From Calditrichota bacterium (GTDB lineage Bacteria; Electryoneota; B3-LCP), in NCBI GenBank assembly GCA_020051775.1, contig JAGVQJ010000163.1, forward strand, positions 2,928 to 66,927: a DNA stretch of 64,000 nucleotides, read 5' to 3'. A program made the position numbers and the translations under genes. The notes beneath the pieces are model-generated. The model did no database searches. It saw only the letters and a program-made list of their open reading frames with translations, and had not been told where the DNA came from. Below are positions 23,658-43,896 of this stretch, piece after piece; the stretch's first letter is position 1; the number at the start of each line of letters is the position of its first letter.

Positions 23658-23731
23658 GGGCGATTAGCTCAGTTGGTTAGAGCGCTGGTCTCACATACCA
23701 GAGGTCACAAGTTCAAGTCTTGTATCGCCCA
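23658..23731 (+). tRNA. tRNA-Val (anticodon CAC), CCA not encoded
   Basis: Hand-folded cloverleaf. Acceptor GGGCGAT/ATCGCCC, D arm GCTC-AGTTGGTTA-GAGC, anticodon arm CTGGT-CTCACAT-ACCAG, T arm ACAAG-TTCAAGT-CTTGT, discriminator A. Confidence 0.9.
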
Positions 23732-28151: not shown

Positions 28152-28159
28152 TTCGTTAA

Positions 28160-28325: not shown

Positions 28326-28353
28326 GGGCTGCTCTCTGGCAGGCCCTTTTATT

Positions 28354-28896
28354 ATGAAATACCGAAACATCACAAGAACCGCCCTTCTGATTGCCCTATG
28401 TGTGGTATTAGGTTATCTTTTTCTTCCCATCCCCAACCTCGAAATGATCACTGCGGGCATATTCGTCTCCGGTATTTGGATGGGAATACGCTCCGGTCTG
28501 TTGATCGGCTTTGTGGCGGAAGCGATTTTTTCGACTACCAACCCGATGGGTTTCCCGCCGCCGCCGCTGCTGATCGCCCAGGTCGCGGCCATGTCGCTGG
28601 TGGGATTATCCGGGGGATTGTTAAGAGGGTTGTTCGCACCCACCAACTCTGCCCAACAAAGGGAATGGCCGCTCCGCTTATTGCTGGCAATAACCGGGCT
28701 TGCCGTCACTTTGTTGTATGACTTCATGACGACCATCAGCTTCCCCCTTGCGGCAGGATTTTCATGGCAGCAAATCAGAATTGCGCTGGCTATGGGTATT
28801 CCATTCATGGCCATGCATTCGATCACCAACACGATTATATTTTCCCTGGCTGTTCCTATTATCATCAACCGGTTTCCTTCGTGGAGAAATCCGTGA
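28354..28896 (+). CDS. Small polytopic membrane protein, ECF S-component-like; putative corrinoid transporter
   Basis: 180 aa with about 6 predicted hydrophobic helices. It is the first gene after the cobalamin riboswitch. The functional call is contextual. Confidence 0.55.
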   Translation: MKYRNITRTALLIALCVVLGYLFLPIPNLEMITAGIFVSGIWMGIRSGLLIGFVAEAIFSTTNPMGFPPPPLLIAQVAAMSLVGLSGGLLRGLFAPTNSAQQREWPLRLLLAITGLAVTLLYDFMTTISFPLAAGFSWQQIRIALAMGIPFMAMHSITNTIIFSLAVPIIINRFPSWRNP

Positions 28897-30770: not shown

Positions 30771-32990
30771 ATGCAAGTTGAAAATCACAGATTAAAAATG
30801 CGACTGGCTATCTGGACAATCTCGATCCTGATGGTGGGAAGCCGTCTTTGGTCGCAAGAAACCACCGGTATTGAAGGCCGTGTCACCGATGCTCGAACCG
30901 GTCTCCCGGTATCTTCTGCCTTGGTGCAGATCATCCATACGGCCATAGAGACACAAACGGATGCTTCCGGCACATTTCGCTTTCTGTCTCTAACGCCCGG
31001 CAGTTACGATCTTAAATTTTCGACAATCGGGTACCGATCCCTGCAAATTTCCAGTGTCGTAACGGCAGTGGGAACTGTTTCCCGAATGGATGTACGGCTT
31101 CAACCTGATCCTTTAAATTTGCCGGAAATGACCGTCCGAGCGACCGCAGATCCAAGCGCCGGGGTACTTTCCGGAGCGAAAATAATCAGCCGAGCGGACA
31201 TCCAAGCGATCAAACCATTCGACCTGCCTGATCTGCTGGAAAAACAGGGTTTGGCCGGAGTTGTTTCCGATGGTACGCCCGGAGGCCGTCGTGCGGTAAC
31301 CATCCGGGGTAGCGCTTCCGACCAAGTTCTGGTTCTCATAGATGGGCAACCCATAAACGAGGCAGCAGATGGCATAGCGGATCTCTCGCGCATTTCGCTG
31401 GCGGAAATCTTGCAGGTTGAGTTCTATCCCCAGGCTCCAGCCATGTTAGGGTCGCAAGCGATTGGCGGAGTAATAAACATAATTACTTTAAGGCCGGGTT
31501 TCAACCAGACCAGACTGCAAGCCGGAGCCGGAGCATTCGGCAACCGACAGGGCAGCATCGCTTTGGGAAGGGTCTGGGGCACCTGGCCTCTTCTTGGCGT
31601 CTTTGAACACCGCGAATCGGAGGGTCGCTATCGTTATCGAGTCATGCCGGATGATGGCATTGACGTCTTCACTCGCAATGTCGAGCAGACCTTAGTCCGC
31701 ACCGGAGCGGATTTCCGCCGCGATTTCCTGTCTTTGAAAATGGATACTCCAGGGCTGGCGGAATTCGTCTATCGTCGCACTTTTTTGTACAGACATAACC
31801 CTGATTATCTTCCCTTGCCAGTCTATTCCCATGAAGCAGTCACCGCTGACGACCGACAGGAATTTACGTTAACCAGTAAATCCGGTGATCGTTGGTATCG
31901 GCCCACTACCGTAGCAAAATTTGAAGGGTACTCACAACAAACTTCGACAGACTACGGTCCTCAATACCCACTGTTGAATCAAGTCTCCAATTTGCGTGGT
32001 GAAGTGTACAGCGCCAAGGCGGATTGGACAATGCAAACGGATTGGCGTCAAATTGCGTTTGGAACCGGGATTCATTACGAACGCTTGTGGTCCGACAATC
32101 TGCAAGGCGGGTACGCCGGTCGCTTACACGAATTCGCATTCTTGCAAGTCCAGGGTGAACCCTTCGTCGAGAGAAAATTGCCGGCCAAGTTGGCGATTTT
32201 CACCGGCGTCCGAGCTGATCTTTATCAAAACCAACAGCCATTCATCCATCCCAAATTGGGTTTGGAAATCGGTGGGGGGGAGGCGGTCGCATGGTCATTG
32301 AGGGGTGAGTATGCAGGTGCGTATCATTTGCCCTCCTTCAATGCCCTGTTTTGGCAGGAAGATCTGCAGTCGCGTGGTAATCCCGAATTAGAGCCTGAAA
32401 GAAGCCTAAATCGCGAAATCGCCGCAAGAATCGGGTATCAAGGCCTGGAACTGGGGTTGGTTTGGTTCGACCGCCAGATCTGGGATATGATCTATTGGCG
32501 CATGGATTTTGAAAACAAATGGAAGCCATTGAATCTGCGCTCAGCGCAGGTTTATGGCACAGAAATCACTTTGCAGGGTCGGTTGGGAGAAGGGCTGGGC
32601 AGCCTGAACCTGAATGCCTCCCATCGTTGGATGCGTTCACAGAATCAATCCGGCGAACCTAATACCGATGGTATGATTCTCCCTTATCGCCCTTTGAACA
32701 CCACCACGCTTTCGTTGCAGGAAAACCTGTACTACTTCAGCACCGACTTAACGGCTCGCTGGATCAGTCGTCGTTTCACGACAGAAGCGAATACGCTCTC
32801 GCTTTCACCTTACACGGTATGGGATGCAGGATTAACAAAAATCATCAATCTCGCACCCAACAATTTCAACCTCACCTTGCGAGGCGAAGTGCGCAATCTT
32901 TTTGATCGCAGTTATCGGATCATTGACAATGCTCCTATGCCCCTGCGTGAATTCTGGATAACCGTAGCGATAGAAAATTCTACCCACTGA
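30771..32990 (+). CDS. TonB-dependent receptor (CarboxypepD_reg-like domain + plug + barrel), probable corrinoid receptor
   Basis: GIEGRVTDARTGLPVSSALV...GSYDLKFSTIGY marks the N-terminal regulatory-like domain. The canonical plug reads AVTIRGSASDQVLVLIDGQPIN...IGGVINIIT. The gene lies in the riboswitch-controlled operon. Confidence 0.8.
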   Translation: MQVENHRLKMRLAIWTISILMVGSRLWSQETTGIEGRVTDARTGLPVSSALVQIIHTAIETQTDASGTFRFLSLTPGSYDLKFSTIGYRSLQISSVVTAVGTVSRMDVRLQPDPLNLPEMTVRATADPSAGVLSGAKIISRADIQAIKPFDLPDLLEKQGLAGVVSDGTPGGRRAVTIRGSASDQVLVLIDGQPINEAADGIADLSRISLAEILQVEFYPQAPAMLGSQAIGGVINIITLRPGFNQTRLQAGAGAFGNRQGSIALGRVWGTWPLLGVFEHRESEGRYRYRVMPDDGIDVFTRNVEQTLVRTGADFRRDFLSLKMDTPGLAEFVYRRTFLYRHNPDYLPLPVYSHEAVTADDRQEFTLTSKSGDRWYRPTTVAKFEGYSQQTSTDYGPQYPLLNQVSNLRGEVYSAKADWTMQTDWRQIAFGTGIHYERLWSDNLQGGYAGRLHEFAFLQVQGEPFVERKLPAKLAIFTGVRADLYQNQQPFIHPKLGLEIGGGEAVAWSLRGEYAGAYHLPSFNALFWQEDLQSRGNPELEPERSLNREIAARIGYQGLELGLVWFDRQIWDMIYWRMDFENKWKPLNLRSAQVYGTEITLQGRLGEGLGSLNLNASHRWMRSQNQSGEPNTDGMILPYRPLNTTTLSLQENLYYFSTDLTARWISRRFTTEANTLSLSPYTVWDAGLTKIINLAPNNFNLTLRGEVRNLFDRSYRIIDNAPMPLREFWITVAIENSTH

Positions 32991-33002
32991 AAGGATCTCA
33001 CC

Positions 33003-34028
33003 ATGAAAGCACAATTAGTTCTCCTTACCTCCCTGACTCTCGGTTTGATGTTCAGCGCCTGCCAGGACAAAGATTCTGTCAACCAACCCATTACACCTTC
33101 TGACAATCCCTCTGCCTGGGTTGTCAACTCCCTTGGGGGTACATTATCAAGAGTTGATTTGGTTACCGATTCGGTTGTCACCAACGTCCTCACCTTAGGC
33201 CAGACACCCAATGACATCGTCATTTCCGGGACGACCGGTTATGTGGTTAACTCTGGAGATAACGACATCCAGATTATTGACTTACAGACCGCACAGACTA
33301 TCGGAACCATTGAACTTTATCTTGGATTGAACCCCTATTTTATAACTGTAGGCGGTGCGGGACAAGCCTTTGTAACTAATCTTTTAACAGGCAACGTCTC
33401 GATCCTGGATCTCGCCCTCAACCAGGAAATAGACACTTTGAACGTCGGAGTTGCGTTGGAGGGGATTTGTATTTATGGAGATACCCTTTACATCTCAGAC
33501 ATAAACGCCGTCAATTGGGTCTATGGCCAGGGATACGTTTATGCGTACTCTCTGCCGGGATTAGCACCTTTAGCCACCATCCCAGTCGGCACCAATCCAC
33601 AGGCCATCGTCGCCGGTCCGGATGGATTCCTTCATGTTGTATGCACCGGCGATTACGGCGCCATCAGCGGGCAGGTGCAGATCATTGATCCTGCTACCCT
33701 GACGGTGGTGGACAGCGTCACCGTAGGCGGGACTCCTGGATCGTTAGCCTTCGATTCGCAGGGGCGAGCGTTTCTGGGCGCCGGCGGTTGGGTCACGGAC
33801 GGATTCGTATTCTCGTATGACGGCATGACTCACCAGCTCTTACATGGAGCCTCCAATCCCATTCTGGTGCCAAAAGGCGCTTATGACGTCAATGCCATAA
33901 CCACCGGTAATATATTGGTTTGCTGTCATAGTGTTGACCAGGTAGTTGAAATGGATCACGACGGCAACATTTTGCAAACCTATCCGGTTGGGGATGGACC
34001 TGCGGTGTTGGCGATTTGGGAACCGTAG
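33003..34028 (+). CDS. Beta-propeller (YncE/YVTN-like) lipoprotein, possibly a BtuG-like surface B12-binding protein
   Basis: Lipobox-like MFSAC. Repeated ~40-aa blades (YVVNSGDNDIQIIDL, AFVTNLLTGNVSILDL, LYISD...). It is the last gene of the riboswitch operon, before the terminator. Confidence 0.6.
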   Translation: MKAQLVLLTSLTLGLMFSACQDKDSVNQPITPSDNPSAWVVNSLGGTLSRVDLVTDSVVTNVLTLGQTPNDIVISGTTGYVVNSGDNDIQIIDLQTAQTIGTIELYLGLNPYFITVGGAGQAFVTNLLTGNVSILDLALNQEIDTLNVGVALEGICIYGDTLYISDINAVNWVYGQGYVYAYSLPGLAPLATIPVGTNPQAIVAGPDGFLHVVCTGDYGAISGQVQIIDPATLTVVDSVTVGGTPGSLAFDSQGRAFLGAGGWVTDGFVFSYDGMTHQLLHGASNPILVPKGAYDVNAITTGNILVCCHSVDQVVEMDHDGNILQTYPVGDGPAVLAIWEP

Positions 34029-34061
34029 ACCGATAGGATAGTTTGCAGATCAGTCCAATTA

Positions 34062-34092
34062 GGCCCTCCAAATTAAAGGGGGGCTTTTTGTT
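34062..34092 (+). terminator. Rho-independent terminator ending the cobalamin operon
   Basis: Stem GCCCTCC (34063-34069) pairs with GGGGGGC (34078-34084) with one G-U pair, loop AAATTAAA, followed by TTTTTGTT. Confidence 0.65.
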
Positions 34093-34111
34093 ATAGATCC
34101 CCTGATTTCTC

Positions 34112-34141
34112 TTGCAATCCATGCGCTGAATTGTTTATATT
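34112..34141 (+). promoter_or_regulatory. Candidate sigma70-type promoter (TTGCAA-18-TATATT) for the TBDR/PorV-like operon
   Basis: TTGCAA at 34112-34117 and TATATT at 34136-34141, about 30 nt upstream of ATG 34174. Confidence 0.4.
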
Positions 34142-34173
34142 TTAGCGACTGAAAGGCAAGACACAGGAAACCC

Positions 34174-36753
34174 ATGAAGAAATTAGTCATTTCGCTCGCT
34201 TTGGCGCTACTTTCAGTAAGCGCTCTTCAGGCCGGCATCACCGGGAAAATAAGTGGAAAAATCGTAGACAGCCAAGATGGTTCACCGTTACCGGCCGTAA
34301 ACGTGATCCTGGATGGATCCTCCTTGGGTGCAGCCACCGATGCGGAAGGAGATTTCAGCCTTTTAAACCTGCCAGCCGGTACTTATACGCTTATCGTACG
34401 CATGATGGGTTATCAGGAAATGCGGTTTCAGGGTGTCCGAGTCAATGCTGATTTGACCACTTGGATAGATGTTAAACTGAATAAAACCGTACTCCAATCT
34501 GCAGAAGAGATCATCGTCCAAGTCAAACCGGATCTGTTGCGCTTCGATGTGACCAGCAAAATGTCGCTGGTGGAAGCTCGGGATCTGCAGGATCTGCCGG
34601 TCGTCAGCGTTCAGGAGCTGCTGAAGACTCAGGCCGGGTTCACTGAGGATGCTTCCGGTGAAATCCACGTTCGAGGCGGTCGCGGAAAGGAGATTCTCTA
34701 TATCGTGGATGGTATGCCGCTGAAAGATCCCATGACCGGTCAACCGGCAACTCTGATCAATCCGCAATCCGTCCAGGAGATGGAGGTTCTTTCCGGCACC
34801 TACAACGCCGAATACGGCGACGCCATGTCTGCGGTTGTAAACGTCATCACTCAAAATCCCACGGAAAAATTTAATGCGCGACTCGAATTCTTAAGCCCTT
34901 TCCTGAATTCCAGCCCCTATCGTTCTGCCGACTGGGGCGGCTCCGGCACCGATGTCATGCGCGATTCAAGCGGAACTTCCCTGTATAATGCGCCCACAGT
35001 TGAGAATCTGATTGATCCGAGCATCCCCGTACTGGGTATTGTTTCGGGATCTTTGACCGGCCCGATTCCACTGGATAAGAGGCTCGGATTTGCAATATCC
35101 AGTCGTTATCGCAAGGAAGATAGCTACTTGCCTTTCGGATATGACGTTGAGCATCAGGGACTGGGTAAGTTGCGGTTTCAGGCAACGCCCAGATTGAAGC
35201 TGACCGCCACCGGCGACCTCTCCCGCCGCCAGTATCAAGGTTACAGCCACGACTGGAGATATTTGCATGAGGGCTATCGCAGCCATGATCGGCAGTCGGG
35301 GTATTTCGGTGTACAGGCAAATCACACATTGCTGGATAATCTGTTCTATGCCGCTAATTTGTACTACTTACGACAGCACCAGAAAACCGGAGTCGGCAAC
35401 AAAACGCCCGACCAGTACATTCAGGGACAGCGTACGGGTGAGGCCTTTTATTTCGCCAACGATGATGATATTTATCAGTTGACTGATTCCTGGACTTATG
35501 GCGGCAAGGCGGACTTCAATTACCAGGGTTTTAAGGCGCATGCGTTCAAGTTTGGATTCGATTTAAAACAGCATCGCCTGGCGGACACGACTTATGTTCA
35601 GCCGTGGCCGGGAGGCGCGAATGATTCAACCAAATACAATCGCTGGGCCGACGAATATTCCGCCTATGTACAAGATAAAATCGAACTTCGGTATCTGGTC
35701 GTTAACTTAGGGTTGCGTCTGGATTATATCAACCCGCGCAGTCTCTTCTGGAGCGATCCTAAAGATCCCAACACCCCCATGACCGAAGTTGACCCGCATT
35801 ATCAGCTTTCACCGCGACTGGGATTGGCGCATCCGGTGACTGCGACGACCATGCTGCATTTCGCCTACGGACACTTTTTCCAGAAACCCAGTTTCCGAGA
35901 GGTGTATTATAACTCCCAATATTGGACCAATCCCGAAATGATGTTGGAAGTGGATTATCCACTGGTGGGGAATCCACGAGTCAAGCCGCAGAAAACGGTT
36001 GCTTATGAAGCTGGAGTCAAACAGGCGTTGGGACCCGATTTGGCTCTGGACGTCAACCTCTGGTATAAGGATGTAACGGATCTTCTGGCCACCACGGAAG
36101 TGCGGGCCTATCCCTACCACTTTGTAGTGTATGATAATGCGGATTACGCCTCAGTTCGCGGATTTGACTTAAGCCTGCACAAACGGTTCGAAGACAATTT
36201 TTCCGCCAGCTTGAATTACAGTTTCTCTGTGGCCACCGGAAACCGATCCGATCCCACTGCCGGGTACTGGGATGCTTACGCCCAAGAGAACCCGCCCAAC
36301 CGCGAAACTTTTCTGGATTTCGACCGCCGCCATGACGTGGCATTCGATCTAAACTACGAGTTCGGAGCCGGTGACGGCCCCAGAGTCGGAGAATATCCCA
36401 TTTTGGAGAGAACGGGCTTTAATCTCCTGTTGACAGCTTCGTCGGGAATGCCTTACACTCCCTACGTCGGCCCAACCGTAGATGTAGATGAGAATTCCGC
36501 ACGTATGGGTTGGACGGCCACCGTAGACATGGAATTGCGGCGTGCGCTGAAGATCACCCCACTATCTGCCACTTTGATTCTGCAAGTGAATAACCTGTTC
36601 GACGCGCAAAACCCGATGAGAGTATGGTCACGCACGGGAAAACCGTGGGATGACGGTTGGGAAGGTCTGTTCTCATCCTACGACATGCAGCGTGATCCCT
36701 CTAACGTCGGCCCGCCCCGGCTGATTCGCGCCGGCATTCGGTTGGAATATTAA
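34174..36753 (+). CDS. TonB-dependent receptor (CarboxypepD_reg-like + plug + large barrel)
   Basis: Signal peptide; GKISGKIVDSQDGSPLPAVNVIL...GTYTLIVRMMGY; plug IHVRGGRGKEILYIVDGMPLKDPMTG; C-terminal ...IRAGIRLEY. Confidence 0.85.
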   Translation: MKKLVISLALALLSVSALQAGITGKISGKIVDSQDGSPLPAVNVILDGSSLGAATDAEGDFSLLNLPAGTYTLIVRMMGYQEMRFQGVRVNADLTTWIDVKLNKTVLQSAEEIIVQVKPDLLRFDVTSKMSLVEARDLQDLPVVSVQELLKTQAGFTEDASGEIHVRGGRGKEILYIVDGMPLKDPMTGQPATLINPQSVQEMEVLSGTYNAEYGDAMSAVVNVITQNPTEKFNARLEFLSPFLNSSPYRSADWGGSGTDVMRDSSGTSLYNAPTVENLIDPSIPVLGIVSGSLTGPIPLDKRLGFAISSRYRKEDSYLPFGYDVEHQGLGKLRFQATPRLKLTATGDLSRRQYQGYSHDWRYLHEGYRSHDRQSGYFGVQANHTLLDNLFYAANLYYLRQHQKTGVGNKTPDQYIQGQRTGEAFYFANDDDIYQLTDSWTYGGKADFNYQGFKAHAFKFGFDLKQHRLADTTYVQPWPGGANDSTKYNRWADEYSAYVQDKIELRYLVVNLGLRLDYINPRSLFWSDPKDPNTPMTEVDPHYQLSPRLGLAHPVTATTMLHFAYGHFFQKPSFREVYYNSQYWTNPEMMLEVDYPLVGNPRVKPQKTVAYEAGVKQALGPDLALDVNLWYKDVTDLLATTEVRAYPYHFVVYDNADYASVRGFDLSLHKRFEDNFSASLNYSFSVATGNRSDPTAGYWDAYAQENPPNRETFLDFDRRHDVAFDLNYEFGAGDGPRVGEYPILERTGFNLLLTASSGMPYTPYVGPTVDVDENSARMGWTATVDMELRRALKITPLSATLILQVNNLFDAQNPMRVWSRTGKPWDDGWEGLFSSYDMQRDPSNVGPPRLIRAGIRLEY

Positions 36754-36773
36754 CGGACAAAGATAGAAATCCC

Positions 36774-39700
36774 ATGAAAAGAATCTTCTCCGCTGCTTCC
36801 CTGGCATTAACTTTAACACTGGCCGCTGCCGTACACGCACAGAGTCCGGACTGCAATTCCTGCCATTTAAGTCAGGGGAAAAATGCGTTACCGCCTGTAC
36901 GCCAAATCCAATCCGAAACCGATCGCGGCTACGGTGTCATGGACAAGGGTTCCCTGGGCAATATCTGCGGCAATTTCGGCATACTGTCCAATTACCACGT
37001 TTTCTTTCAATACGCCATGCACTGGCCCCGCTGGGCTGATGATTCGCATCAGTACTGCTTCGGATTCGCCCCAGTCGTCGCCGTGGCTGATAATGTGGTG
37101 GAATCCTACACCTCCATAGCCGGTAGGGACTGGGAAGCCAAAGACGGCGGTTACGGGACGCAATTTTCCGGGGATGTTCGCGCCGCGTCCGACGATACTC
37201 CCTTCCTGGCCTCCTCTGATATCATTGATACCTGGCCGATGATCGGCGGCGAACGCGCCTGGCCGGGACCTTTCCGTGGAATTCCCGGCAATCCCGATTC
37301 CGCCACCGTGCCGGGGCAATTCGCCAGCGACCGCGACGTTTGGGGTGTTTTTGATGACCATGACAACCAGATTCAACCGTTGGGTCTGGAATGCCGGCAG
37401 ATGACTTATTGTTACAATCGCTCGTATGCCGAGGATTTCATCTTCTTTGACTTGAAGTTTCACAATACAAGTACGACCACGTACGATTCCCTTTATATTG
37501 GCCATTATGGCGATTTCCGTGTGGACTACGACAATTTAGACTTGTTGAAACTGGTAGATACGGACGGTGACGGCAAGCGTGATTTCCTGATATACTGGGA
37601 TGCTGATGAGGAACCGGTTGAACCCTGGACGGTCATGGGGATGATTGGTGTGGCTATAATCAATACGCCGGATGATATCGGCGTCACCGATTTCCACTAC
37701 TTCAAACATGCTGACCGACCGACTACTGACCCCATGCAGTGGCCCATCATCAGTGGGCAGCCGGCTCTCGCACAAGCGCGTGGCATGGATCCAGCTTTAT
37801 TCTTTCACGGCGCTGATCCTCGCTTTGATGATCCGGAAAACGTGGTGTCGCATTTTCCTCCTAATCCACCCCAGGCCCCCTATGGCGGAGCGCCGTTGGA
37901 TTACTTTCTGACGACGCTGTTGCGTGACTTTGCGCCGGGGGATAGCGCTCGCTTGACTCTGGCTGTGGTTATGGGATTAGATTCTGCAGCATTATATGAC
38001 AACCTGGCCACCGCGCAATTAATGGCCTCCATGGGATTTCAAGGGTCTGGCCCTCCCGATCCTCCGATTGTGACTTTCAAAGCGAGCGATCATGAAGCCA
38101 CATTGTACTGGGATCCTAATCCATCTGAAAATTCGGTGGACGTCATCACCAACGAGCTGGATTTCGAGGGCTATAAAATATACCGCAGCGATGACCTTGG
38201 TTTGACTTGGGGGGTAGAGGTGCGGGATTACCTCGGTGTGCTGCAGGGATATGTTCCCTTGGCTATCTACGATAAAATTGACGGCATTCAAGGCGCTGAT
38301 CCAAGCGCGCCCTGGCAGAGCCTGGGGAGCGAATCAGGCTTACAGTACTCGTTTGAAGACAGCGGACTGGTCAACGGCGTGGAATACTGGTATGCGGTGT
38401 GCGCTTATGATCACGGCCTGCAAGGAACCGACCCGGAACCAAGCCTACAGAACGGTTTCGGACGCCCGGAAGTTTCAACCCATATTATCAGCGTGACCCC
38501 AGGAGTTAATCCGCAAACCTACAATCCCATTCCCGGAGGCATCTTTCTACCGCAAATGGGGATGACAATGTCTGGTTACGTGGCGCCGTCGGGACCGCTG
38601 ACATTAGGCACTGCTTTTGTCGAAGTCATAGGCGACCCTGATTCCTTAAGCGGGCACGGATACAGAATCGCCATTTCCGATTCTATGCCACATCCGGATT
38701 CGTCCTTTACGGTTCAAGGGACTGACACGATCTGGTCGTACTTCACCTCCTGGTGGGATTCAACCTGTTATAGTGTCATAGATACAACTCTAGGGGATAC
38801 GCTGATAGCCTTCCACCCCTTCTTTGTGGAAAATGCCGGGAACAGCCTGGCGGGAGAGCAACCGATTGTGGATGGGTTGCGTTTTACCGTAAAAGATGGA
38901 TCGCTCTGGTTTGGTTGGACGCTCTTCCATCAGGATTCCTGCACTTTTGATTGGTGGCGTGAGGCACGTCAGAATCCGATGGGGGAAGCTTGGATACAGG
39001 GTTCTGCATCATTCCGGCTAACGGTTGACTATGACAGTCTCAATGGCGGCTGCCACGCGCAGATTGAAGACCAATTCGGGGGTTATTATCCCGCCATCTG
39101 GGTGCCGTTCAGAGTGGAAATGATCTCGGATACTTCCAACCCCATTGACGTCGGCGATCTTACTTGGATCGTAGATTATGAGACCGGTGTCCTTGGTGGC
39201 ACCGTTCCCTTCCCCCCGAACATGTTCTTCAGCCCTGCGGGCTGGGATTTGGAACCCGGCGGCACGGGGTATAATCCGTTTGATTTCGGCAATGCCTATC
39301 CCGATGAAATCTCCTTCCGGTATTACGCTCCTACTGGCGATACGTCCATCGCCAACATCCGCACGCAAAATTTACCGGATTCACTGGGCGGCATTGCCCC
39401 TACTCAAGGCGACCAGTTCAGCTTGCTGAACGCCAGGTTGACATCCCAGCACCGCTTTGATTTCGGTACGGCTTGGCCGACGTACACACTGGATCCTACC
39501 GCTGTGAATTTAGCACAGATCAAGGTAGTGCCTAATCCTTACATCGTCTCAGCAGGGTGGGAAAGCGGCGCCGACGATCATCGTCTTCAATTTACGCACC
39601 TTCCGCCGGAATGCACCATCGAGATTTATACGGTTTCGGGCAACCTGGTCAGAAGACTACATCACCAATCGGATACAGAAGGGTATCTCTTCTGGGATTT

Positions 39701-39803
39701 GCGCAATGAATCCAAGCAGGACGTCGCCTTTGGGCTTTACGTGTTCTACGTGAAGACTCATCAGGGGCAAGAACATGCCGGCCGATTTGTGGTCATTCGG
39801 TAA
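36774..39803 (+). CDS. 1009-aa secreted protein of unknown function with one CxxCH, an FN3-like domain and a divergent T9SS-sorting-domain-like C-terminus
   Basis: Signal peptide ...AAAVHAQ, then SPDCNSCH. FN3-like EATLYWDPNP...GYKIYRSDD...GVEYWYAVCAYD. C-terminus IKVVPNPY...CTIEIYTVSGNLVRRL...WDLRNESKQDVAFGLYVFYV...GRFVVIR. Confidence 0.6.
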   Translation: MKRIFSAASLALTLTLAAAVHAQSPDCNSCHLSQGKNALPPVRQIQSETDRGYGVMDKGSLGNICGNFGILSNYHVFFQYAMHWPRWADDSHQYCFGFAPVVAVADNVVESYTSIAGRDWEAKDGGYGTQFSGDVRAASDDTPFLASSDIIDTWPMIGGERAWPGPFRGIPGNPDSATVPGQFASDRDVWGVFDDHDNQIQPLGLECRQMTYCYNRSYAEDFIFFDLKFHNTSTTTYDSLYIGHYGDFRVDYDNLDLLKLVDTDGDGKRDFLIYWDADEEPVEPWTVMGMIGVAIINTPDDIGVTDFHYFKHADRPTTDPMQWPIISGQPALAQARGMDPALFFHGADPRFDDPENVVSHFPPNPPQAPYGGAPLDYFLTTLLRDFAPGDSARLTLAVVMGLDSAALYDNLATAQLMASMGFQGSGPPDPPIVTFKASDHEATLYWDPNPSENSVDVITNELDFEGYKIYRSDDLGLTWGVEVRDYLGVLQGYVPLAIYDKIDGIQGADPSAPWQSLGSESGLQYSFEDSGLVNGVEYWYAVCAYDHGLQGTDPEPSLQNGFGRPEVSTHIISVTPGVNPQTYNPIPGGIFLPQMGMTMSGYVAPSGPLTLGTAFVEVIGDPDSLSGHGYRIAISDSMPHPDSSFTVQGTDTIWSYFTSWWDSTCYSVIDTTLGDTLIAFHPFFVENAGNSLAGEQPIVDGLRFTVKDGSLWFGWTLFHQDSCTFDWWREARQNPMGEAWIQGSASFRLTVDYDSLNGGCHAQIEDQFGGYYPAIWVPFRVEMISDTSNPIDVGDLTWIVDYETGVLGGTVPFPPNMFFSPAGWDLEPGGTGYNPFDFGNAYPDEISFRYYAPTGDTSIANIRTQNLPDSLGGIAPTQGDQFSLLNARLTSQHRFDFGTAWPTYTLDPTAVNLAQIKVVPNPYIVSAGWESGADDHRLQFTHLPPECTIEIYTVSGNLVRRLHHQSDTEGYLFWDLRNESKQDVAFGLYVFYVKTHQGQEHAGRFVVIR

Positions 39804-39815
39804 AAGGTAAAAGCT

Positions 39816-40859
39816 ATGATGGAAAACAAACCAAGAAAATACTACCTTGCCAGTTGTCTTGCATTGGCGGTGCTTTTATCATCAGCATTACCATGTGAGG
39901 CTTTCACCAAGAAAGGCACGACGGCCGCTGATTTCCTGAAGATCGGAGTCGGAGGACGACCGGTGGCCATGGCTGGATCGGTAGTAGCCTGCCCGACAAA
40001 CTTGGATGCGCTGTACTGGAATCCCGCTGGTTTGGCCGGAGCAGACAAAGTTCAATTGGGGGCGACACATGCACGCTGGATCGCTTCCATTAACTATGAT
40101 TTTTTAGGCTTGGTCGTTCCCGCCGGGCACAATCTGACCATAGGCGCATTTGCAGCGTCACTTTCCACTGAGGAGATGGAGCAAACTACCATATCTCAGC
40201 CTGAAGGAACTGGAATACTCTTTGACTATGGAGACATAACCGGAGGGGTTGCAGCGGGTTTACGGTTGACGGATCGCTTTCGCGTTGGGGCTGCCGTAAA
40301 AGTAGTTTACACGAAAGCCTTCAATGAATCCGCAACAGCAGTTGCTTTGGACGTAGGCACACACTTGGTGACGGCTTTTCACGGCTTGTCCATAGGCATG
40401 GCCTTGGCCAATTTCGGCACCAACATGAAATTGGATGGTCGCGACCTGATCGTGGAGGGCGATCCTGAACCAAACATGCCCGGTAATGAGAATCGCGAGG
40501 CACGCCTGGAAACTAACGAATATCCGCTACCAGTTACCTTTCGGATCGGGGTTGCCTTGGATCTGTTGGGTGTAAAGCCAGCGCTGATGATCTCGCCGCA
40601 CCATCGCATCACTACCGCCTTATCAGCCGACCATTTCGCCGAAAACGTGGAACAATTACATGGTGGTGCGGAATATGCTTTTCGAGAAATGTTTTTCCTG
40701 CGGGGCGGATACACCGTCAACGATGATTCCCGTTCCTGGGCTGCTGGAGCCGGTGTCGCCGTAGCCAGTGGAAATGTACGCGTCAGAGCCGATTTCGCCT
40801 ACGAAGATATGGGTGTGTTTGATATGGTGCCGCGTTTCAGTTTGGCGCTGGAGTTTTGA
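39816..40859 (+). CDS. PorV/PorQ-family outer-membrane barrel
   Basis: Signal peptide, then GTTAADFLKIGVGGRPVAMAGSVVA...LDALYWNPAGLAG, the hallmark N-terminal motif of the PorV/PorQ (UPF0164-like) family. Ends ...PRFSLALEF. Confidence 0.75.
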   Translation: MMENKPRKYYLASCLALAVLLSSALPCEAFTKKGTTAADFLKIGVGGRPVAMAGSVVACPTNLDALYWNPAGLAGADKVQLGATHARWIASINYDFLGLVVPAGHNLTIGAFAASLSTEEMEQTTISQPEGTGILFDYGDITGGVAAGLRLTDRFRVGAAVKVVYTKAFNESATAVALDVGTHLVTAFHGLSIGMALANFGTNMKLDGRDLIVEGDPEPNMPGNENREARLETNEYPLPVTFRIGVALDLLGVKPALMISPHHRITTALSADHFAENVEQLHGGAEYAFREMFFLRGGYTVNDDSRSWAAGAGVAVASGNVRVRADFAYEDMGVFDMVPRFSLALEF

Positions 40860-41617
40860 AGGAACACCCGGTGGCTGCTGTGCATGACTTGGATGCTCTA
40901 CTACGCACGGGAATAGAGCTATCCCACACCAAACGCTTTGCAGAAGCTGAGCCGATTTTCAGGCAGGTCTTGACGTTAGAACCGCGCCACACGGGAGCGG
41001 CTTATATGTTATCTTTGTGTCTATATTTTACCGGTCAATTCCATCAGGTTCTGCCGCTGTTTGGTCAATTAAGCGCTGCAAATTCTCCCCTTGATTCGAC
41101 TCAAAAGAGAAACATTTCCGAGTTATCCCGATACGCTGAATTTGAAACCCTTCGATTGAATTACTGGGAGAAAAAGGAAGAGAAGGAAGGACAGAAGGTA
41201 GAAATTGGTAAATCTAAAGGGATGAGTGCCCGCCTTCTAAGTAGAGCTGGTAAAGTGTTATTGCTTCCCGATTTTACCGATGTAGATGATGCGATTGGAG
41301 CAAACGTTGAGGCAGTGGACGGCAGGAAATATGAACTAATTCCATTCCATGAACTGGTGATGCTGGAATTCGGAATCGTGAAGCGTTGGATTTCTGCTCA
41401 ATTGGTCTATCGGGACGGAAGCCGTTTAACCATTCAGACACCGATGACCTATCGCGATTCCATGAGGCATGTGGCGCGGGGAGTGCGGGAAGGCTTGGAA
41501 ACTGTCATACAACCGCACGAATCCTCTCCTTCAAGGTTGCTGGCCGTGGGACAGAAACAGTTCCGATCAGGTTCGCTAAAAATACCTTTGTCAGAAATAC
41601 AGCGGATTGAATTTTAA
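40856..41617 (+). CDS. ImpE/TagJ-like protein (TPR-like N-terminus plus ImpE-like C-terminal domain), cytoplasmic
   Basis: No signal peptide. N-terminal TPR-like helices (FAEAEPIFRQVLTLEPRHTGAAYMLSLCLYFTGQF). C-terminal GRKYELIPFHELVMLEF...W..A.L...DG....IQTPMTYRDS...VGQKQF...LSEIQRIEF resembles the ImpE/TagJ pattern as I recall it. Overlaps the PorV-like gene by 4 nt. Confidence 0.5.
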   Translation: MKEHPVAAVHDLDALLRTGIELSHTKRFAEAEPIFRQVLTLEPRHTGAAYMLSLCLYFTGQFHQVLPLFGQLSAANSPLDSTQKRNISELSRYAEFETLRLNYWEKKEEKEGQKVEIGKSKGMSARLLSRAGKVLLLPDFTDVDDAIGANVEAVDGRKYELIPFHELVMLEFGIVKRWISAQLVYRDGSRLTIQTPMTYRDSMRHVARGVREGLETVIQPHESSPSRLLAVGQKQFRSGSLKIPLSEIQRIEF

Positions 41618-41637
41618 ACACTTAAAGACAAAATAAT

Positions 41638-41672
41638 AGCGATCCTCCAATAGGGTGGATCGCTTCTATTTT
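41638..41672. terminator. Bidirectional rho-independent terminator
   Basis: Stem AGCGATCC (41638-41645) pairs with GGATCGCT (41657-41664), followed by TCTATTTT. An A-rich stretch upstream serves the convergent minus-strand gene. Confidence 0.7.
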
Positions 41673-41686
41673 CAGAAGTCTATATT

Positions 41687-42097
41687 TTATCGAAATAGCG
41701 CTTTGATGGATCCCCACGTCTGCTGGATACCTGAGAAGAACAGTACCACTGATTGAACCGGACTCACGACAAAGGTATTATCGTCCATCTGACCCAGGAT
41801 GCGGTAGTAATAGGTTCGGTTGCTGCTCTTATAGATGTCGTGATCTTCAAAGTTATAAGAGGAATTGTTTCCCAATGGTTGCAGAGTTGTAAGCACAATA
41901 TAAGTGATGCCATCCAGGCTGCGTTCGATCCGAAAATTGGAGAGTCCGGTTTCCAGCCCGGATGTCCATGTGAGCAGGACGGAACTCTCCCCTTGAGCCT
42001 GAGCGGCAAAATCATTGATTAAATTCTGAGCCGGAGCTGCCGCAGAAAGGATTGCCAAAATCGCCAGACTCAGCAGAATCGCTTTGCTAAACGACAT
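41687..42097 (-). CDS. Small secreted Ig/FN3-like protein of unknown function
   Basis: Signal peptide MSFSKAILLSLAILAILSAAAPAQ. FN3-like pattern SSVLLTWTSG...FRIERSLDG...YYYRI. GAGGA ribosome-binding site. Confidence 0.55.
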   Translation of the reverse strand: MSFSKAILLSLAILAILSAAAPAQNLINDFAAQAQGESSVLLTWTSGLETGLSNFRIERSLDGITYIVLTTLQPLGNNSSYNFEDHDIYKSSNRTYYYRILGQMDDNTFVVSPVQSVVLFFSGIQQTWGSIKALFR

Positions 42098-42118
42098 ATT
42101 AATTTCCTCGTTTGACTA

Positions 42119-42147
42119 AAGTTAAAGCAAAATGTGGGGAATGTCAA
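42119..42147 (-). promoter_or_regulatory. Candidate sigma70-type promoter (TTGACA-17-TAACTT) for the small secreted protein gene
   Basis: The minus strand reads TTGACAttccccacattttgcttTAACTT, about 20 nt upstream of the GAGGA site and ATG at 42097. Confidence 0.4.
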
Positions 42148-42179
42148 GTAAAAAGCGTGAATATTTCGGTGCTGCATTA

Positions 42180-43043
42180 TTATGGCCCGCTTGTTTGCTG
42201 AAGATACTGCTGATAGGTGGCTACGTGCGTCTGGTCAAGTCCTGTTAAGATCTGAAGTTGATCCACTAAGCCCAGAGTGTACAACATGCGGGCCATATCC
42301 AAATGGTGAATTTCATAAAATCGCGCAGTCGCCGGGTTATCGAAACTTAAGTTTTTGAGTTTCAGAATGATAGCGCGCAAGTATTGGCCAGAAGTTTTAC
42401 GGTCATCCACCCGAAAACGGTAATGCGCCTGGGAGAAAAAATACTCCAATTCCCGATAGGGCTTTTGGGGGCTGGAAAGTAGTCTTTCGATGTAGGCAGT
42501 GCGCTCTTTCCAACCAGTATCGAAAAATTCGCTAAACTTCGATAATTGAGCAACCTGGAAAGCCTTCTGATAATAAGCATCGCCGCCTGATTTCTTTTTC
42601 TTGTCATATTCCTGACCCAGAAGGGCGTACATGTAAAAATCAACCAAGCTTGTGAGTGACTGGAACTGGTCAACGTGCGTCAATTGGGATCCTTGCTGAT
42701 AAGCGAAAAGCCACTTTTTATCCGAAGCTTGAAAATCATTCTGGCTGCCTACGGCTAGGCGAGCGTTATAACGATCTTCAAAACTGGTAGGTGCAGCTTG
42801 TTCAATAAATATGTCCATTTGGACGGGAATGGTGTAGCGACCGGCGTTGTCGGTCCAATCGTATTCGTTTAAGTAGCTGGTGAGCAGGTCCTTTAGGGGA
42901 GCGAGCTTGTCCTTGGATTCCTGCAGCAATTTATCCGTATTGACGGTCACCTGGGCAGTGATACGTTGCGCTTGGATTACAGGCGCACGGAACAGCAGTA
43001 AATCCCCTATGACAATCAGTGAAAAGATGAGTTGATTTTTCAC
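42180..43043 (-). CDS. DUF4835-family protein (PorD-like T9SS-associated protein)
   Basis: GTG 43043 gives signal peptide VKNQLIFSLIVIGDLLLFRAPVIQAQ. The body (TAQVTVNTDKL..., YLNEYDWTD, LVDFYMYALLGQEYD, GGDAYYQKA, GW.ERT) follows the DUF4835 pattern I recall from Bacteroidota. The track ORF's upstream 58 aa overlaps the divergent gene. Confidence 0.6.
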   Translation of the reverse strand: MKNQLIFSLIVIGDLLLFRAPVIQAQRITAQVTVNTDKLLQESKDKLAPLKDLLTSYLNEYDWTDNAGRYTIPVQMDIFIEQAAPTSFEDRYNARLAVGSQNDFQASDKKWLFAYQQGSQLTHVDQFQSLTSLVDFYMYALLGQEYDKKKKSGGDAYYQKAFQVAQLSKFSEFFDTGWKERTAYIERLLSSPQKPYRELEYFFSQAHYRFRVDDRKTSGQYLRAIILKLKNLSFDNPATARFYEIHHLDMARMLYTLGLVDQLQILTGLDQTHVATYQQYLQQTSGP

Positions 43044-43092
43044 ATCGTTCCTATGTAAATTGCACTGGTTTATAAACGGGAATGATCCTGCC

Positions 43093-43896
43093 ATGACAAA
43101 GTGTAATATCCTGTCAACCCTCTTGTTTAATTCACTTCTACTGGTTTGTGTTCCCGGATTCGCGCAGGCGGCTTTTGAAGCTCCCGAACCCCAACCCGTG
43201 TCGTTCGCTTTAGCCAACCTTAACTCGTTTCCTGATTATCTGACCGAATCAACTTCGGGGCGGTGGTGCTTGCATGTTGCCGCTTCCCGTCTTTATGGGA
43301 TGCCGGAAATCCAACCATTTGGTTTTTGGGCGGGCGGGAACGCTCTGGGTGGAGGCTTGCGACTTCGAGGTTACGGTTTAAATAGCGGTACTTATCAAGA
43401 AACCTCTCAAGGTTTGGAATATCGTCGTTTCGTGAATTCTGCCATCGAAGTTGGTCTGGAAGCTCAGACTAACCAAATAGCTATCGAAAAATACGGATCA
43501 GCATGGGCTGGACAGGTCAATGGCCGCTTGAGATGGACTGTCCCAAATCGTTTTACGGTCGCTTTCACTTGGATAAATGCTACCGGTTCAAGTATTGGCA
43601 CAGGAAACTATCCGTTGCCCGGTCGTCTCGTATTGGGTGGCCGAATTGATCCTCAGAAAAACCTGGCGCTTTTCCTGGAAGTGGAGAAAACCAGCAGATA
43701 TGACCTATCAACACGAATCGGTGCTGGATTTATGCTCCTGCGCGACATCACGTTGTTGGGTGGATTCCAAAGTGATCCCAATCTGGCCGCATTAGGAGTT
43801 TCAGCTTTAATTGGCAAAGTACGCGCTATTGCCTCTTACCAATATCATTCCGAATTAGGTTTCTCGCAATGCTACGGAATCGGCCTGATTTTTTAA
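43093..43896 (+). CDS. Outer-membrane beta-barrel protein, uncharacterised
   Basis: Signal peptide MTKCNILSTLLFNSLLLVCVPGFAQA, alternating beta pattern, C-terminal ...CYGIGLIF (terminal Phe). Confidence 0.5.
   Translation: MTKCNILSTLLFNSLLLVCVPGFAQAAFEAPEPQPVSFALANLNSFPDYLTESTSGRWCLHVAASRLYGMPEIQPFGFWAGGNALGGGLRLRGYGLNSGTYQETSQGLEYRRFVNSAIEVGLEAQTNQIAIEKYGSAWAGQVNGRLRWTVPNRFTVAFTWINATGSSIGTGNYPLPGRLVLGGRIDPQKNLALFLEVEKTSRYDLSTRIGAGFMLLRDITLLGGFQSDPNLAALGVSALIGKVRAIASYQYHSELGFSQCYGIGLIF

Follow-up and report, generated by a model that had tools for sequence, protein, structure and literature searches.

A conserved trio of TonB-dependent receptor, T9SS-tailed protein and PorV-family barrel: a candidate cassette for surface capture and uptake

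The SusC/SusD, RagA/RagB and BtuB/BtuG pairs of Bacteroidota each place a TonB-dependent receptor (TBDR) with a CarboxypepD_reg extension beside a dedicated surface-exposed partner, and SusC/SusD-type pairs have multiplied and diversified within genomes, where they are set among secreted hydrolases and regulators. In the T9SS (type IX secretion system) attachment complex, barrels of the PorV/PorQ family grip large surface proteins by an uncleaved C-terminal domain (CTD): the tail of PorZ is retained on PorQ and that of PorU on PorV, and protection of tails from cleavage has been suggested as a role for cognate PorV-like barrels (PMC10202324). Proteins of the PorP/SprF family are PorV-like barrels deployed for specific substrates (PMC10202324), and the gene of a cargo with a type-B CTD is followed directly by that of its own outer-membrane barrel, e.g., in SprB-SprF. 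The Slam or type XI clusters of Proteobacteria (TbpA-TbpB-Slam1, HrpA-HrpB-HrpC) encode together a TBDR, a co-receptor that is surface-bound or secreted, and the barrel dedicated to delivering it (PMC8406197, PMC5449769). In Myxococcus xanthus, the receptor Oar, which combines a barrel and a TonB-box plug with a CarboxypepD_reg extension, has the secreted protein PopC as its specific partner, and receptors of the Oar type have been linked to protein export (PMC6434023).

The locus described here shares parts with all of these systems. Within the window (the whole 64-kb stretch of DNA that was analysed), the ORF listing gives four genes on the + strand:

34174-36753, + strand: TonB-dependent transporter of Oar-type architecture, 859 aa (profile matches)
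36774-39803, + strand: secreted multidomain protein, 1009 aa, the family-defining middle gene (profiles, conservation, AF2 model)
39816-40859, + strand: FadL-like outer-membrane barrel of the PorV/PorQ family, with signal peptide, 347 aa (profile matches)
40856-41617, + strand: cytoplasmic protein with TPR and ImpE domains, 253 aa (PF07024)

The initial annotation had called these a TBDR, a T9SS-tailed protein, a PorV-like and an ImpE-like protein, and profile searches bear out all four assignments. We hold, with slightly better than even confidence, that three of the four genes work as a unit, an outer-membrane cassette in which the 1009-aa protein is held at the surface by the barrel and feeds the receptor as importer. 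Nutrient capture and import is the probable role of the trio. T9SS traits are present in the organism: the window also encodes a PorD-like protein (42180-43217) and, at 57063-59828, an S8 peptidase bearing a canonical Por_Secre_tail.

Of the 47 loci with enough flank, 45 have TBDR, ~1000-aa protein and PorV/PorQ-family barrel in this order. A same-strand TBDR lies upstream of the middle-gene homologue in 55/57 loci and a PorV-like gene downstream in 60/63, the median spacings within the trio being roughly 37 and 1 nt; one locus (L002) carries two trios in tandem. Hosts include WOR-3, Ignavibacteriota, Calditrichota, KSB1, Marinimicrobia, Gemmatimonadota, Zixibacteria and others, and trios also occur on contigs of Ignavibacteria, Calditrichota, Marinimicrobia and Gemmatimonadota type. 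Across 52 trios, the pairwise divergences of the three proteins are correlated (r = 0.91, 0.84 and 0.89; Mantel p = 0.001), although shared ancestry alone would also give a correlation. The earlier proposal that a PorV paralogue holds a dedicated cargo beside a dedicated TBDR fits this conservation of order across many FCB phyla. Proteins with a Por_Secre_tail make up 28/56 of the upstream and 21/60 of the downstream neighbours of trio loci, and M16 peptidases (7), CBM20 (6), CBM48 (5), BNR proteins and LacI regulators occur as well; elsewhere the neighbours are mostly T9SS cargo, M16 peptidases and CBM20/CBM48 proteins among them, and the surroundings resemble nutrient-utilisation loci. The window copy has no hydrolase or regulator adjoining the trio and hence no substrate pointer. 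No description of such a module was found in open-access text, so that the cassette appears undescribed, in line with the first reading of the locus.

The 1009-aa protein has no Pfam match, and Pfam/NCBIfam coverage of its family, which numbers no fewer than 2,103 clusters at 50% identity (E <= 1e-30), is essentially nil. Its AF2 model (mean pLDDT 82.2) arranges a β-supersandwich head, an FN3 domain, more β-domains and a C-terminal sorting domain in that order:

36909-38048, + strand: N-terminal head, aa 46-425 (structure model, Foldseek, conservation)
38061-39518, + strand: FN3 domain (about aa 430-575) and further β-sandwich domains (about aa 580-915) (conservation, structure model)
39522-39800, + strand: C-terminal domain, aa 917-1009, a predicted divergent T9SS sorting domain

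The heads are swapped: the part formed by the FN3 domain (motif DFEGYKIYRS...NGVEYWY), the β-domains and the tail is common even to relatives with a different head, and many family representatives match only positions ~380-988 of the profile. The tail follows the pattern VVPNPY...LPxEC.I.IYT..G...G.Y...V...GRF.VIR. It falls below the Pfam threshold, and Pfam barely detects the tails of this family; T9SS dependence is therefore a matter of remote homology. Residues 913-1002 give weak curated matches, the best being to the CTDs of PorZ (E = 1.7e-4) and PorU (E = 3.7e-3). An HMM of 55 canonical T9SS tails from the same genomes matches 38/38 tails of the family, and hhalign relates the two sets with a probability of 95.7% (E = 8.7e-9). 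These profile comparisons identify the C-terminus as a divergent T9SS sorting domain homologous to canonical tails, which upholds the earlier reading of this region. A lone Cys947 in the tail is kept in 90% of 52 proteins; like the CxxCH motif described below, it falls outside what the model of the trio explains.

The barrel scores 165 bits against NF033709 (cutoff 90). PorV, PorQ and PorV2 themselves were tried and rejected, as the equivalog cutoffs are missed (40 vs 250, 57 vs 220 and 62 vs 325 bits, respectively). All 52 partner barrels in the trios match PorV_fam, none at equivalog level, and they share a conserved start, FxKxGTTAAxFLKIGVGAR; on these scores the barrel represents a branch of its own, apart from PorV, PorQ and PorV2. 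Barrel and cargo thus resemble PorQ-PorZ and PorV-PorU in the family of the barrel and in the best curated matches of the tail, and the Foldseek list for the 1009-aa protein includes PorZ (5m11). However, the protein contains neither the β-propellers of PorZ nor the peptidase domain of PorU, and the pair is joined to a TBDR gene and present in several copies, which sets it apart from single-copy components of the secretion machinery. The trio shares with SprB-SprF the cargo gene directly followed by its own barrel gene, and CHU_C (type-B tail) is weakly matched by 6 of 38 family members. In contrast to that system, the barrel is of the PorV/PorQ and not the PorP/SprF family, the tail is nearer to type A by profile comparison, and a TonB-dependent transporter belongs to the unit. 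The Slam clusters have the same three kinds of parts, but from unrelated families: their barrel is DUF560 and their cargo TbpBBD, whereas the trio combines a FadL/PorV-like barrel with a T9SS-tailed cargo in FCB-group hosts, so the likeness is one of analogy.

The receptor consists of a CarboxypepD_reg N-terminal extension, a TonB-box-like EEIIVQV, a plug and a barrel (PF13715, 68 bits; PF07715, 50 bits; PF25183, 44.7 bits), the barrel being recognised by PF25183 and not by PF00593. Plug and TonB-box-like block are kept in all 52 trio receptors, and judged by its sequence the protein looks like a working TonB-dependent transporter. Membership in SusC/RagA was rejected (TIGR04056, 77 bits vs a cutoff of 368), which separates the trio from SusC/SusD-type pairs; further differences are that the partner is no lipoprotein and lacks the helical SusD fold, being a β-rich protein of ~1000 aa with a T9SS tail, and that a third gene, the PorV-family barrel, is obligatory. 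Under a cobalamin riboswitch, the window also encodes a second, BtuB-like receptor and, next, a lipoprotein β-propeller (cf. PMC10404256); identity between the two receptors is only 24%, in the N-terminal 237 aa.

A point against import is the link of the Oar-type architecture to protein export (PMC6434023). The receptor might act on the 1009-aa protein as Oar does on PopC, helping to move or assemble it across the outer membrane, with the barrel receiving and anchoring it. Such a role would agree with the domain architecture, including the PF25183 barrel, and the strict one-to-one pairing of receptor and 1009-aa protein would suit a dedicated exporter. However, Oar exports a protease that has neither a T9SS tail nor a PorV-like partner, whereas the protein considered here, in an organism with T9SS traits, carries its own T9SS-type tail. 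A well-folded multidomain β-protein of 1000 residues is also an unlikely passenger for a plugged 22-strand barrel, and the secreted hydrolases, binding modules and LacI regulators around the trios form an uptake-locus pattern. We therefore regard export by the receptor as quite improbable.

Modelled separately, the head of the 1009-aa protein reaches a pLDDT of 93 and a pTM of 0.93. With a Foldseek probability of 1.0, TM scores of 0.35-0.47 and 7-12% identity, it resembles the N-terminal domains of GH94, GH116 and GH15-type enzymes as well as aldose 1-epimerase. Sugar binding by the head is weakly suggested by the model, given that TM scores lie below 0.5, identity is low, and in most of the matched enzymes the corresponding domain has no catalytic role. 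Near-invariant residues of the protein lie mostly in the head (D195, Y218, D221, D251, D253, D256, D276, T305, D306, H308 and H345) and, T305 aside, could form a catalytic or Ca2+ site. Since, in addition, all fold relatives of the head are carbohydrate-active enzymes and arrays of FN3 and β-sandwich domains are typical of adhesins, the protein might serve chiefly as an enzyme, an adhesin or a coat at the surface, linked to the receptor through product uptake or as a structural partner and forming no SusD-like capping or hand-over complex. This is unlikely: the matched domain is an accessory β-sandwich and a counterpart of the catalytic (α/α)6 domain is missing from the protein, while a gene order that stays fixed, with almost no spacing, across many phyla and the co-divergence of protein and receptor favour a stoichiometric partnership over a loose metabolic linkage.

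The N-terminus comprises a predicted signal peptide (aa 1-22), Gln at +1 and a flexible stretch with a CNSCH motif (aa 27-31). In the subfamily of the window copy, this CxxCH could carry covalent haem c and the protein act as a surface haemoprotein with the receptor, in the handling of haem, iron or electrons. The motif lies four residues after the predicted cleavage site, its position is kept in 22/38 homologues at only ~37% identity and in 18/52 trios, and the receptor has sub-threshold matches to haem/transferrin receptor subfamilies (TIGR01786, 76 bits; TIGR01785, 72 bits). These matches are generic, however, as the BtuB-like neighbour scores equally on the same models. The motif is missing from most of the family and so cannot define the function of the cassette; the single copy per 1000 residues sits in a predicted disordered segment, and no cytochrome-c maturation genes were detected in the window. 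A role in handling haem, iron or electrons is accordingly quite improbable.

In the capture-and-import reading, which we prefer, the 1009-aa protein would be exported by Sec, with signal peptide removal leaving Gln at +1, and would cross the outer membrane via the T9SS by means of its divergent sorting domain. Instead of being cleaved and linked to lipopolysaccharide, the tail would stay on its own barrel, like that of PorZ on PorQ or PorU on PorV, and so fix the protein at the cell surface. The exchangeable head, here a β-supersandwich of carbohydrate-enzyme type, would capture a substrate, most likely a glycan or peptide in the window copy, and pass it to the adjacent receptor for import with TonB energy. 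The ImpE-like gene would ride the transcript of the trio with an unrelated function. If correct, the trio would be a lipoprotein-free counterpart of SusC/SusD, BtuB/BtuG and TbpA/TbpB/Slam in FCB-group phyla.

The fourth gene had been included in the unit by the initial annotation. Its product has the N-terminal TPR region and C-terminal ImpE domain of TagJ/ImpE (PF07024, 47.7 bits vs a cutoff of 25). TagJ binds the sheath of the type VI secretion system (T6SS). A single machine of TonB, T9SS and T6SS-type parts would be consistent with the presence of a real ImpE-family member at most 11 nt after the barrel gene with no terminator between them, and with a second locus (L004) carrying the same four genes in order. 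However, the ImpE-like gene is absent from all 80 distant trio loci, its product has no signal peptide, and no T6SS gene was detected in the 64 kb. Syntenic relatives (candidate division LCP-89-like) show all four states: L004, like the window, has both trio and ImpE, L003 has the trio without ImpE, L007 and L091 lack the trio but have ImpE, which there comes right behind the B12 operon, and L092 has neither. The ImpE gene occupies a fixed chromosomal spot by the PorD-like gene in LCP-89-like genomes, with or without the trio, its gains and losses being independent of the trio. Thus, the adjacency that a neighbourhood search was to check is conserved for genes 1-3 but not for gene 4. This distribution largely refutes a four-gene machine, which we consider highly improbable, and the meeting of a T6SS part with a T9SS/TonB machine is thus an accident of how genes are ordered in this lineage. 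The ImpE-like protein is best read as a cytoplasmic resident of its chromosomal spot, unrelated to the trio and not one of its components, although its gene probably shares the trio transcript here.

The four reading frames lie where first annotated, closely spaced between two terminator-like hairpins. Three features flank them:

34061-34096, + strand: upstream terminator-like hairpin and T-run (stem scan, folding)
34112-34141, + strand: sigma-70-like promoter match TTGCAA-18-TATATT (9/12, weak)
41638-41672, no strand assigned: downstream hairpin with A-run and U-run flanks (sequence, folding)

The annotated gaps of 20 nt (receptor to 1009-aa protein) and 12 nt (1009-aa protein to barrel) were read again from the sequence, but the 4-nt overlap of the last two genes (TTGA) hinges on TTG at 40856, the earliest possible start. 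Alignments with ImpE-like homologues begin only at residue 6, and GTG at 40871 has AAGGA 6 nt 5' of it; this GTG is the likely true start, and the junction is more likely an 11-nt gap. The tight packing holds with either start. The promoter-like site is no better than chance (15 such sites found vs 13.0 expected in shuffles). The upstream hairpin (scan: 34061-34086, 9-bp stem, 6 GC pairs, TTTTTGTT tail) folds with -16.6 kcal/mol (z = -2.4); it ends the cobalamin-riboswitch operon and is the left boundary of the unit. The downstream hairpin, not picked up by the simple terminator scan as its stem is interrupted, folds at 41638-41664 plus its U-rich tail with -19.8 kcal/mol (z = -5.05; 0/200 shuffles equally stable). 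With an A-run on its 5' side, a U-run on its 3' side and convergent genes on either side, it resembles a bidirectional terminator and delimits the unit on the right.

The four open reading frames read initially as one operon lie where they had been placed, all on the forward strand, and both hairpins that bound them are borne out by folding:

34061-34086: left hairpin, 9-bp stem with 6 GC pairs and a T-run, -16.6 kcal/mol
34174-36753, forward: TonB-dependent receptor
36774-39803, forward: 1009-aa middle protein
39816-40859, forward: PorV/PorQ-family barrel
40856-41617, forward: ImpE-like protein
41638-41664: right hairpin between convergent genes, -19.8 kcal/mol, z = -5.05, flanked by an A-run and a U-run

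The gaps of 20 nt and 12 nt that separate the first three genes are present in the sequence. The 4-nt overlap claimed for the last pair hinges on a TTG start at 40856. Because the alignment of homologues starts no earlier than residue 6 of the ImpE-like protein, and because AAGGA precedes a GTG at 40871 by 6 nt, a gap of 11 nt is more likely; the packing is tight in either case. A sigma-70 promoter match at 34112 was rejected, as its frequency is at chance level.

The fourth gene had been counted as a T6SS-type part of the unit, and this claim fails. The protein has an ImpE domain (PF07024, 47.7 bits against a cutoff of 25, residues 139-251, profile positions 6-121 of 122) and an N-terminal TPR region (TPR_19, 23.1 bits), and lacks a signal peptide. 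A PDB search returned generic TPR matches only and no TagJ structure, and neither the scanned genes of the window nor the syntenic loci L004, L007 and L091 contain a T6SS family. ImpE homologues are absent (tblastn) from the 80 loci of other phyla collected with the middle-protein profile. Two syntenic loci, L003 and L004, encode relatives of the middle protein at 65-69% identity in the chromosomal context of the window. In L004 the receptor, middle protein and barrel genes (the trio) are followed by ImpE, and in L003 directly by a convergent 135-aa gene, ImpE being absent. Further loci were reached via ImpE homologues and Ffh searches: L007 and L091 (named LCP-89 genome) have ImpE directly after the upstream cobalamin (B12) operon and no trio, and L092 has neither. 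All four presence/absence states thus occur in one conserved context, and only some lineage members have the trio in the interval from the B12 operon to the ImpE-like gene. These distribution data speak against a four-gene machine, which is largely excluded. The ImpE-like gene is a resident of this chromosomal position, and in the window it is most probably carried on the trio's transcript. The case is a caution: a T6SS-type fourth gene, though eye-catching, is a positional neighbour and no component.

The remaining three genes keep their arrangement in other genomes. Counts were made on the best 80 of at least 581 confirmed relatives in species-representative genomes, scoring only loci with enough flank. 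A same-strand receptor homologue lies immediately upstream of the middle gene in 55 of 57 loci, a same-strand barrel homologue immediately downstream in 60 of 63, and both partners are present in 45 of 47; the median spacings are ~37 nt and ~1 nt. The hosts are WOR-3, Ignavibacteriota, Melioribacteraceae, Calditrichota (including a Caldithrix abyssi MAG), KSB1, Neomarinimicrobiota/Fidelibacterota, Gemmatimonadota, Stahlbacteria, Zixibacteria and Cloacimonetes, and the trio is found likewise on metagenomic contigs. One Calditrichota contig (L002, 7118-21784) carries two tandem trios, and three MAGs have two loci each (L037/L069, L060/L088 and L067/L079). Among 52 complete trios, divergence is correlated between the receptor and the middle protein (r = 0.91), the middle protein and the barrel (0.84), and the receptor and the barrel (0.89; Mantel p = 0.001). 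Such co-divergence is expected if trios are inherited and duplicated as units, and shared ancestry alone contributes to it too. Three loci (L020, L069 and L085) are exceptions, with a relative of the middle protein and no detectable receptor or PorV-like neighbour within their flanks.

The receptor consists of a CarboxypepD_reg N-terminal extension, a plug domain (PF07715, 50 bits against a cutoff of 23.9, residues 125-218) and a barrel (PF25183, OMP_b-brl_4, 44.7 bits against 30), and residues 435-708 give sub-threshold matches to several TonB receptor subfamily models. Between extension and plug lies a putative TonB box, EEIIVQV (residues ~111-117), and the block (E)EVVVxAERPL is conserved across the 52 trio receptors examined. 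The protein is not of the SusC/RagA type (TIGR04056, 77 bits against a cutoff of 368, the aligned part being extension and plug, residues 25-209). With the BtuB-like receptor encoded 1.2 kb upstream it shares 24% identity, over the N-terminal 237 residues only. An assignment as haem receptor was rejected: the sub-threshold matches to haem and transferrin receptors are generic, since the neighbouring BtuB-like receptor scores equally strongly.

The barrel matches NF033709 over the full profile (165.4 bits against a cutoff of 90, residues 35-347, profile positions 1-326 of 326), and the PorV/PorQ family model matches all 52 trio barrels. Below the equivalog cutoffs are its scores for PorV (40 bits against 250), PorQ (57 against 220) and PorV2 (62 against 325). 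None of the 52 trio barrels is at PorV, PorQ or PorV2 level, the best E-values of ~1e-30 to 1e-33 being under the cutoffs. A PDB sequence search gave a marginal PorV match only (E = 0.063).

The middle protein has no Pfam match, and NCBIfam aligns only residues 913-1002, weakly, to the C-terminal domains of PorZ and PorU. When a profile of 38 members was searched against 1.84 billion representatives, the family came to 2,103 clusters (50% identity) at E <= 1e-30 and 6,319 at E <= 1e-10, and every source name seen was 'hypothetical protein'. A PDB sequence search with the family profile found nothing meaningful (top match an Fn3-like protein, E = 0.22). An AlphaFold2 model on the family alignment is confident (mean pLDDT 82.2) and divides the protein as follows:

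N-terminus: signal peptide
residues 23-45: disordered tail with a CxxCH motif
residues ~46-425: head
residues ~430-575: FN3 domain
residues ~580-915: more β-domains
residues 917-1009: C-terminal β-sandwich

Searched whole with Foldseek, the model gave only piecemeal FN3-array, PorZ and GH94 matches (TM <= 0.18), so the head was modelled and searched alone (pLDDT 93, pTM 0.93). The predicted head resembles the N-terminal β-supersandwich of GH94 phosphorylases, GH116 β-glucosidase, dextran dextrinase, cyclic-glucan synthase and aldose 1-epimerase (probability 1.0, TM 0.35-0.47, 7-12% identity); the catalytic (α/α)6 domain of the head-like enzymes is missing. Most of the near-invariant residues of the protein sit in the head, among them a conserved cluster of D195, D221, D251, D253, D256, D306 and H308. 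Many distant relatives match profile positions ~380-988 only and have a different N-terminal region, so the FN3 domain, β-domains and tail look like a constant stalk and anchor for an exchangeable head. Multiple copies and swapped N-terminal heads fit a diversifying ligand-binding family. For a rival reading, that the protein is a surface enzyme or adhesin with only a loose linkage to the receptor, speaks the enzyme-like head fold; the missing catalytic domain and the receptor gene kept next door speak against it.

The protein is unlike a SusD lipoprotein: it has no lipobox, its model is β-rich with few helices, and Pfam and NCBIfam scans found no SusD family. The putative Sec signal peptide, read by eye, is MKRIFSAASLALTLTLAAAVHA, followed by QS with Gln at +1. 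The CxxCH motif (CNSCH, residues 27-31, window 36852-36866) sits 2-5 residues past the predicted cleavage site between Ala and Gln. It occupies the same position in 22 of 38 homologues (~37% identity) and in 18 of 52 trios, and is absent from the more distant subfamilies. Candidate roles for it are haem c attachment and a metal or disulfide site, and a haem-related role is a rival reading for the subfamily with this motif.

Curated sorting-domain models (PF18962/TIGR04183 and PF13585/TIGR04131) give no match to the middle protein at E <= 0.1, and Pfam finds weak CHU_C matches in 6 and a weak Por_Secre_tail match in 1 of 38 family members. A local tail HMM was built from 55 canonical sorting domains of neighbours at the same loci, with the tail of the window's S8 peptidase as seed. 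It matches the tails of all 38 family members (20-26 bits), and hhalign relates the canonical to the family tail alignment with a probability of 95.7% (E = 8.7e-9, 62 columns). By these matches the tail is a divergent relative of the type-A sorting domain. AlphaFold2 folds residues 917-1007 as seven strands in a β-sandwich, and the tail has its own signature, VVPNPY and LPxEC. The Cys of the latter (Cys947, window 39612-39614) is conserved in 90% of the 52 trio middle proteins, and no further conserved cysteine occurs in any of the three proteins of these trios; such a lone conserved cysteine is unusual for a T9SS sorting domain.

That the organism has T9SS traits follows from two genes of the window. 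One is PorD-like (NF052317, 83.8 bits, below its cutoff of 170; DUF4835 above its own cutoff), and the other encodes an S8 subtilase of 921 aa (57063-59828, reverse strand) with a canonical Por_Secre_tail (PF18962, 35 bits). Judged by its tail, the subtilase is evidence of ordinary T9SS cargo in the organism. The core T9SS genes (sprA, gldKLMN) lie outside the 64 kb.

The best-supported reading is that the middle protein is a surface co-receptor, anchored by the barrel and feeding the receptor. It would be a T9SS substrate whose tail stays on its private PorV-family barrel, which would hold it on the surface beside the receptor; the head would capture a substrate for TonB-driven import through the receptor. 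There are precedents for a retained tail, that of PorZ on PorQ and that of PorU on PorV, and cognate PorV-like barrels have been proposed to shield tails from cleavage (PMC10202324). A rival reading reverses the direction of transport and has the receptor, as one of Oar type, export the middle protein (PMC6434023). With the middle protein as co-receptor, the cassette parallels SusCD, BtuBG and Slam/type XI clusters in logic, receptor, co-receptor and delivery barrel being encoded together in the last (PMC8406197, PMC5449769). In parts it parallels PorQ-PorZ and SprF-SprB. It belongs to none of these systems.

Trio neighbourhoods in other genomes are consistent with uptake, being of the kind typical of nutrient-utilisation loci; the copy in the window lacks neighbours of this sort. 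The commonest flanking family is Por_Secre_tail (28 of 56 upstream and 21 of 60 downstream neighbours). M16 peptidases follow (7 of 60), all of them in an Ignavibacteria-type clade in which the CxxCH motif is present too; other flanking families are CBM20 (6), CBM48 (5), InhA-like MAM (5), BNR proteins and LacI-type regulators. At a Gemmatimonadota locus the order is LacI, receptor, middle-protein relative, PorV-like barrel, two T9SS cargo proteins, GDE_C, SSF transporter and solute-binding protein. In the Ignavibacteria-type clade (L001, 14323-20343; L011, L012, L021, L029, L039 and L070), whose members count among the closest named relatives of the middle protein in the window, an M16 peptidase of ~860 aa comes after the trio, and L001 continues with an M1/M28/PDZ peptidase and a Tricorn-like protein. 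A peptide substrate is hinted at for this subfamily.

No description of a cassette of TonB-dependent receptor, T9SS cargo and PorV-like barrel was found in the open-access full-text literature; the Caldithrix abyssi genome paper discusses riboswitch-linked receptors only. P. gingivalis IhtA/IhtB was rejected as a precedent for receptor plus T9SS cargo, IhtB being called a lipoprotein in papers that leave T9SS dependence unstated. Every component type of the trio is already known, and what is new is their fixed combination and the very large unannotated middle family. The trio is widespread, strictly conserved and apparently unnamed.

For Bacteroidota and many pathogens, TonB-dependent transporters with surface co-receptors are the means of acquiring nutrients that are scarce or bulky. 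To our knowledge, the known co-receptors (SusD, BtuG, TbpB) are lipoproteins. If confirmed, the trio would amount to a widespread alternative, with a T9SS substrate as co-receptor and a private PorV-like barrel to pin it. A role would be gained for a family of at least 2,103 clusters at 50% identity, and the PorV/PorQ family and uncleaved T9SS tails would have jobs beyond the secretion machine. The carbon and peptide uptake potential of uncultured sediment, ocean and bioreactor lineages could be better read, and annotators would have a simple three-gene signature. A wider reading, conceivable if on the doubtful side, is that many FCB-group phyla without SusD-type lipoproteins (Ignavibacteriota, Calditrichota, KSB1, Marinimicrobia/Fidelibacterota, Gemmatimonadota, WOR-3, Zixibacteria and LCP-89) build outer-membrane complexes for nutrient uptake from type IX parts. 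The ~1000-aa proteins of the middle family, with their exchangeable heads, would then each belong to a stable complex of three proteins, permanently held by a PorV paralogue of their own on a transporter of their own. This, if true, would be a third independent answer to the 'receptor plus surface co-receptor' problem, besides SusCD and Slam-TbpAB, and would give the PorV family a second role as fixed anchor inside an import machine.

The window is housekeeping chromosome, with TamB, BamA, LpxD, LpxC-FabZ, Dxr, RpsB, Ffh, RimM and TrmD as well as cell-wall genes, Rho, CdaA and UvrD. As no relative above 40% identity was found in species-representative genomes, the lineage was placed with Ffh, which shares 75% identity with its counterpart in 'candidate division LCP-89 bacterium B3_LCP' (FCB-group phylum) and ~63% with Calditrichota proteins. 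Directly upstream of the trio lies a separate operon (28157-34096), in which the following were recognised:

28157-28268: cobalamin riboswitch at the head of the operon, 35.1 bits against a cutoff of 31.5
30771-32990: BtuB-like TonB receptor
33003-34028: YVTN β-propeller with the N-terminus LMFSAC/QDKDS

The N-terminus of the propeller looks like a (surface-)lipoprotein signal, and on this account receptor and propeller make a BtuB/BtuG-like pair (for the BtuB/BtuG arrangement, see PMC10404256). Two adjacent receptors of the same cell thus seem to be served by different kinds of co-receptor, the first by a lipoprotein and the second by a T9SS-type protein. The operon also encodes an ECF-type S component, named by synteny with L003, L007 and L091, and a protein of ~620-668 aa without family match. 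The reading frames past the riboswitch are ambiguous: frame 28227-28721 is unlike a membrane protein, and the overlapping frame 28354-28896 (180 aa) is more likely the S-component gene. The 668-aa frame from 28764 probably has its true start further downstream, as its orthologues have 596-622 aa. Convergent to the ImpE-like gene (41687-43217, reverse strand) are genes for a 136-aa secreted protein without family match and the DUF4835/PorD-like protein, a pair kept in all syntenic relatives with or without ImpE or trio. A tRNA gene lies at 23658-23731 (73.5 bits), and a 277-aa frame (21095-21928, reverse strand) occupies the place held in L091 and L092 by a flagellin gene beside a MerR regulator.
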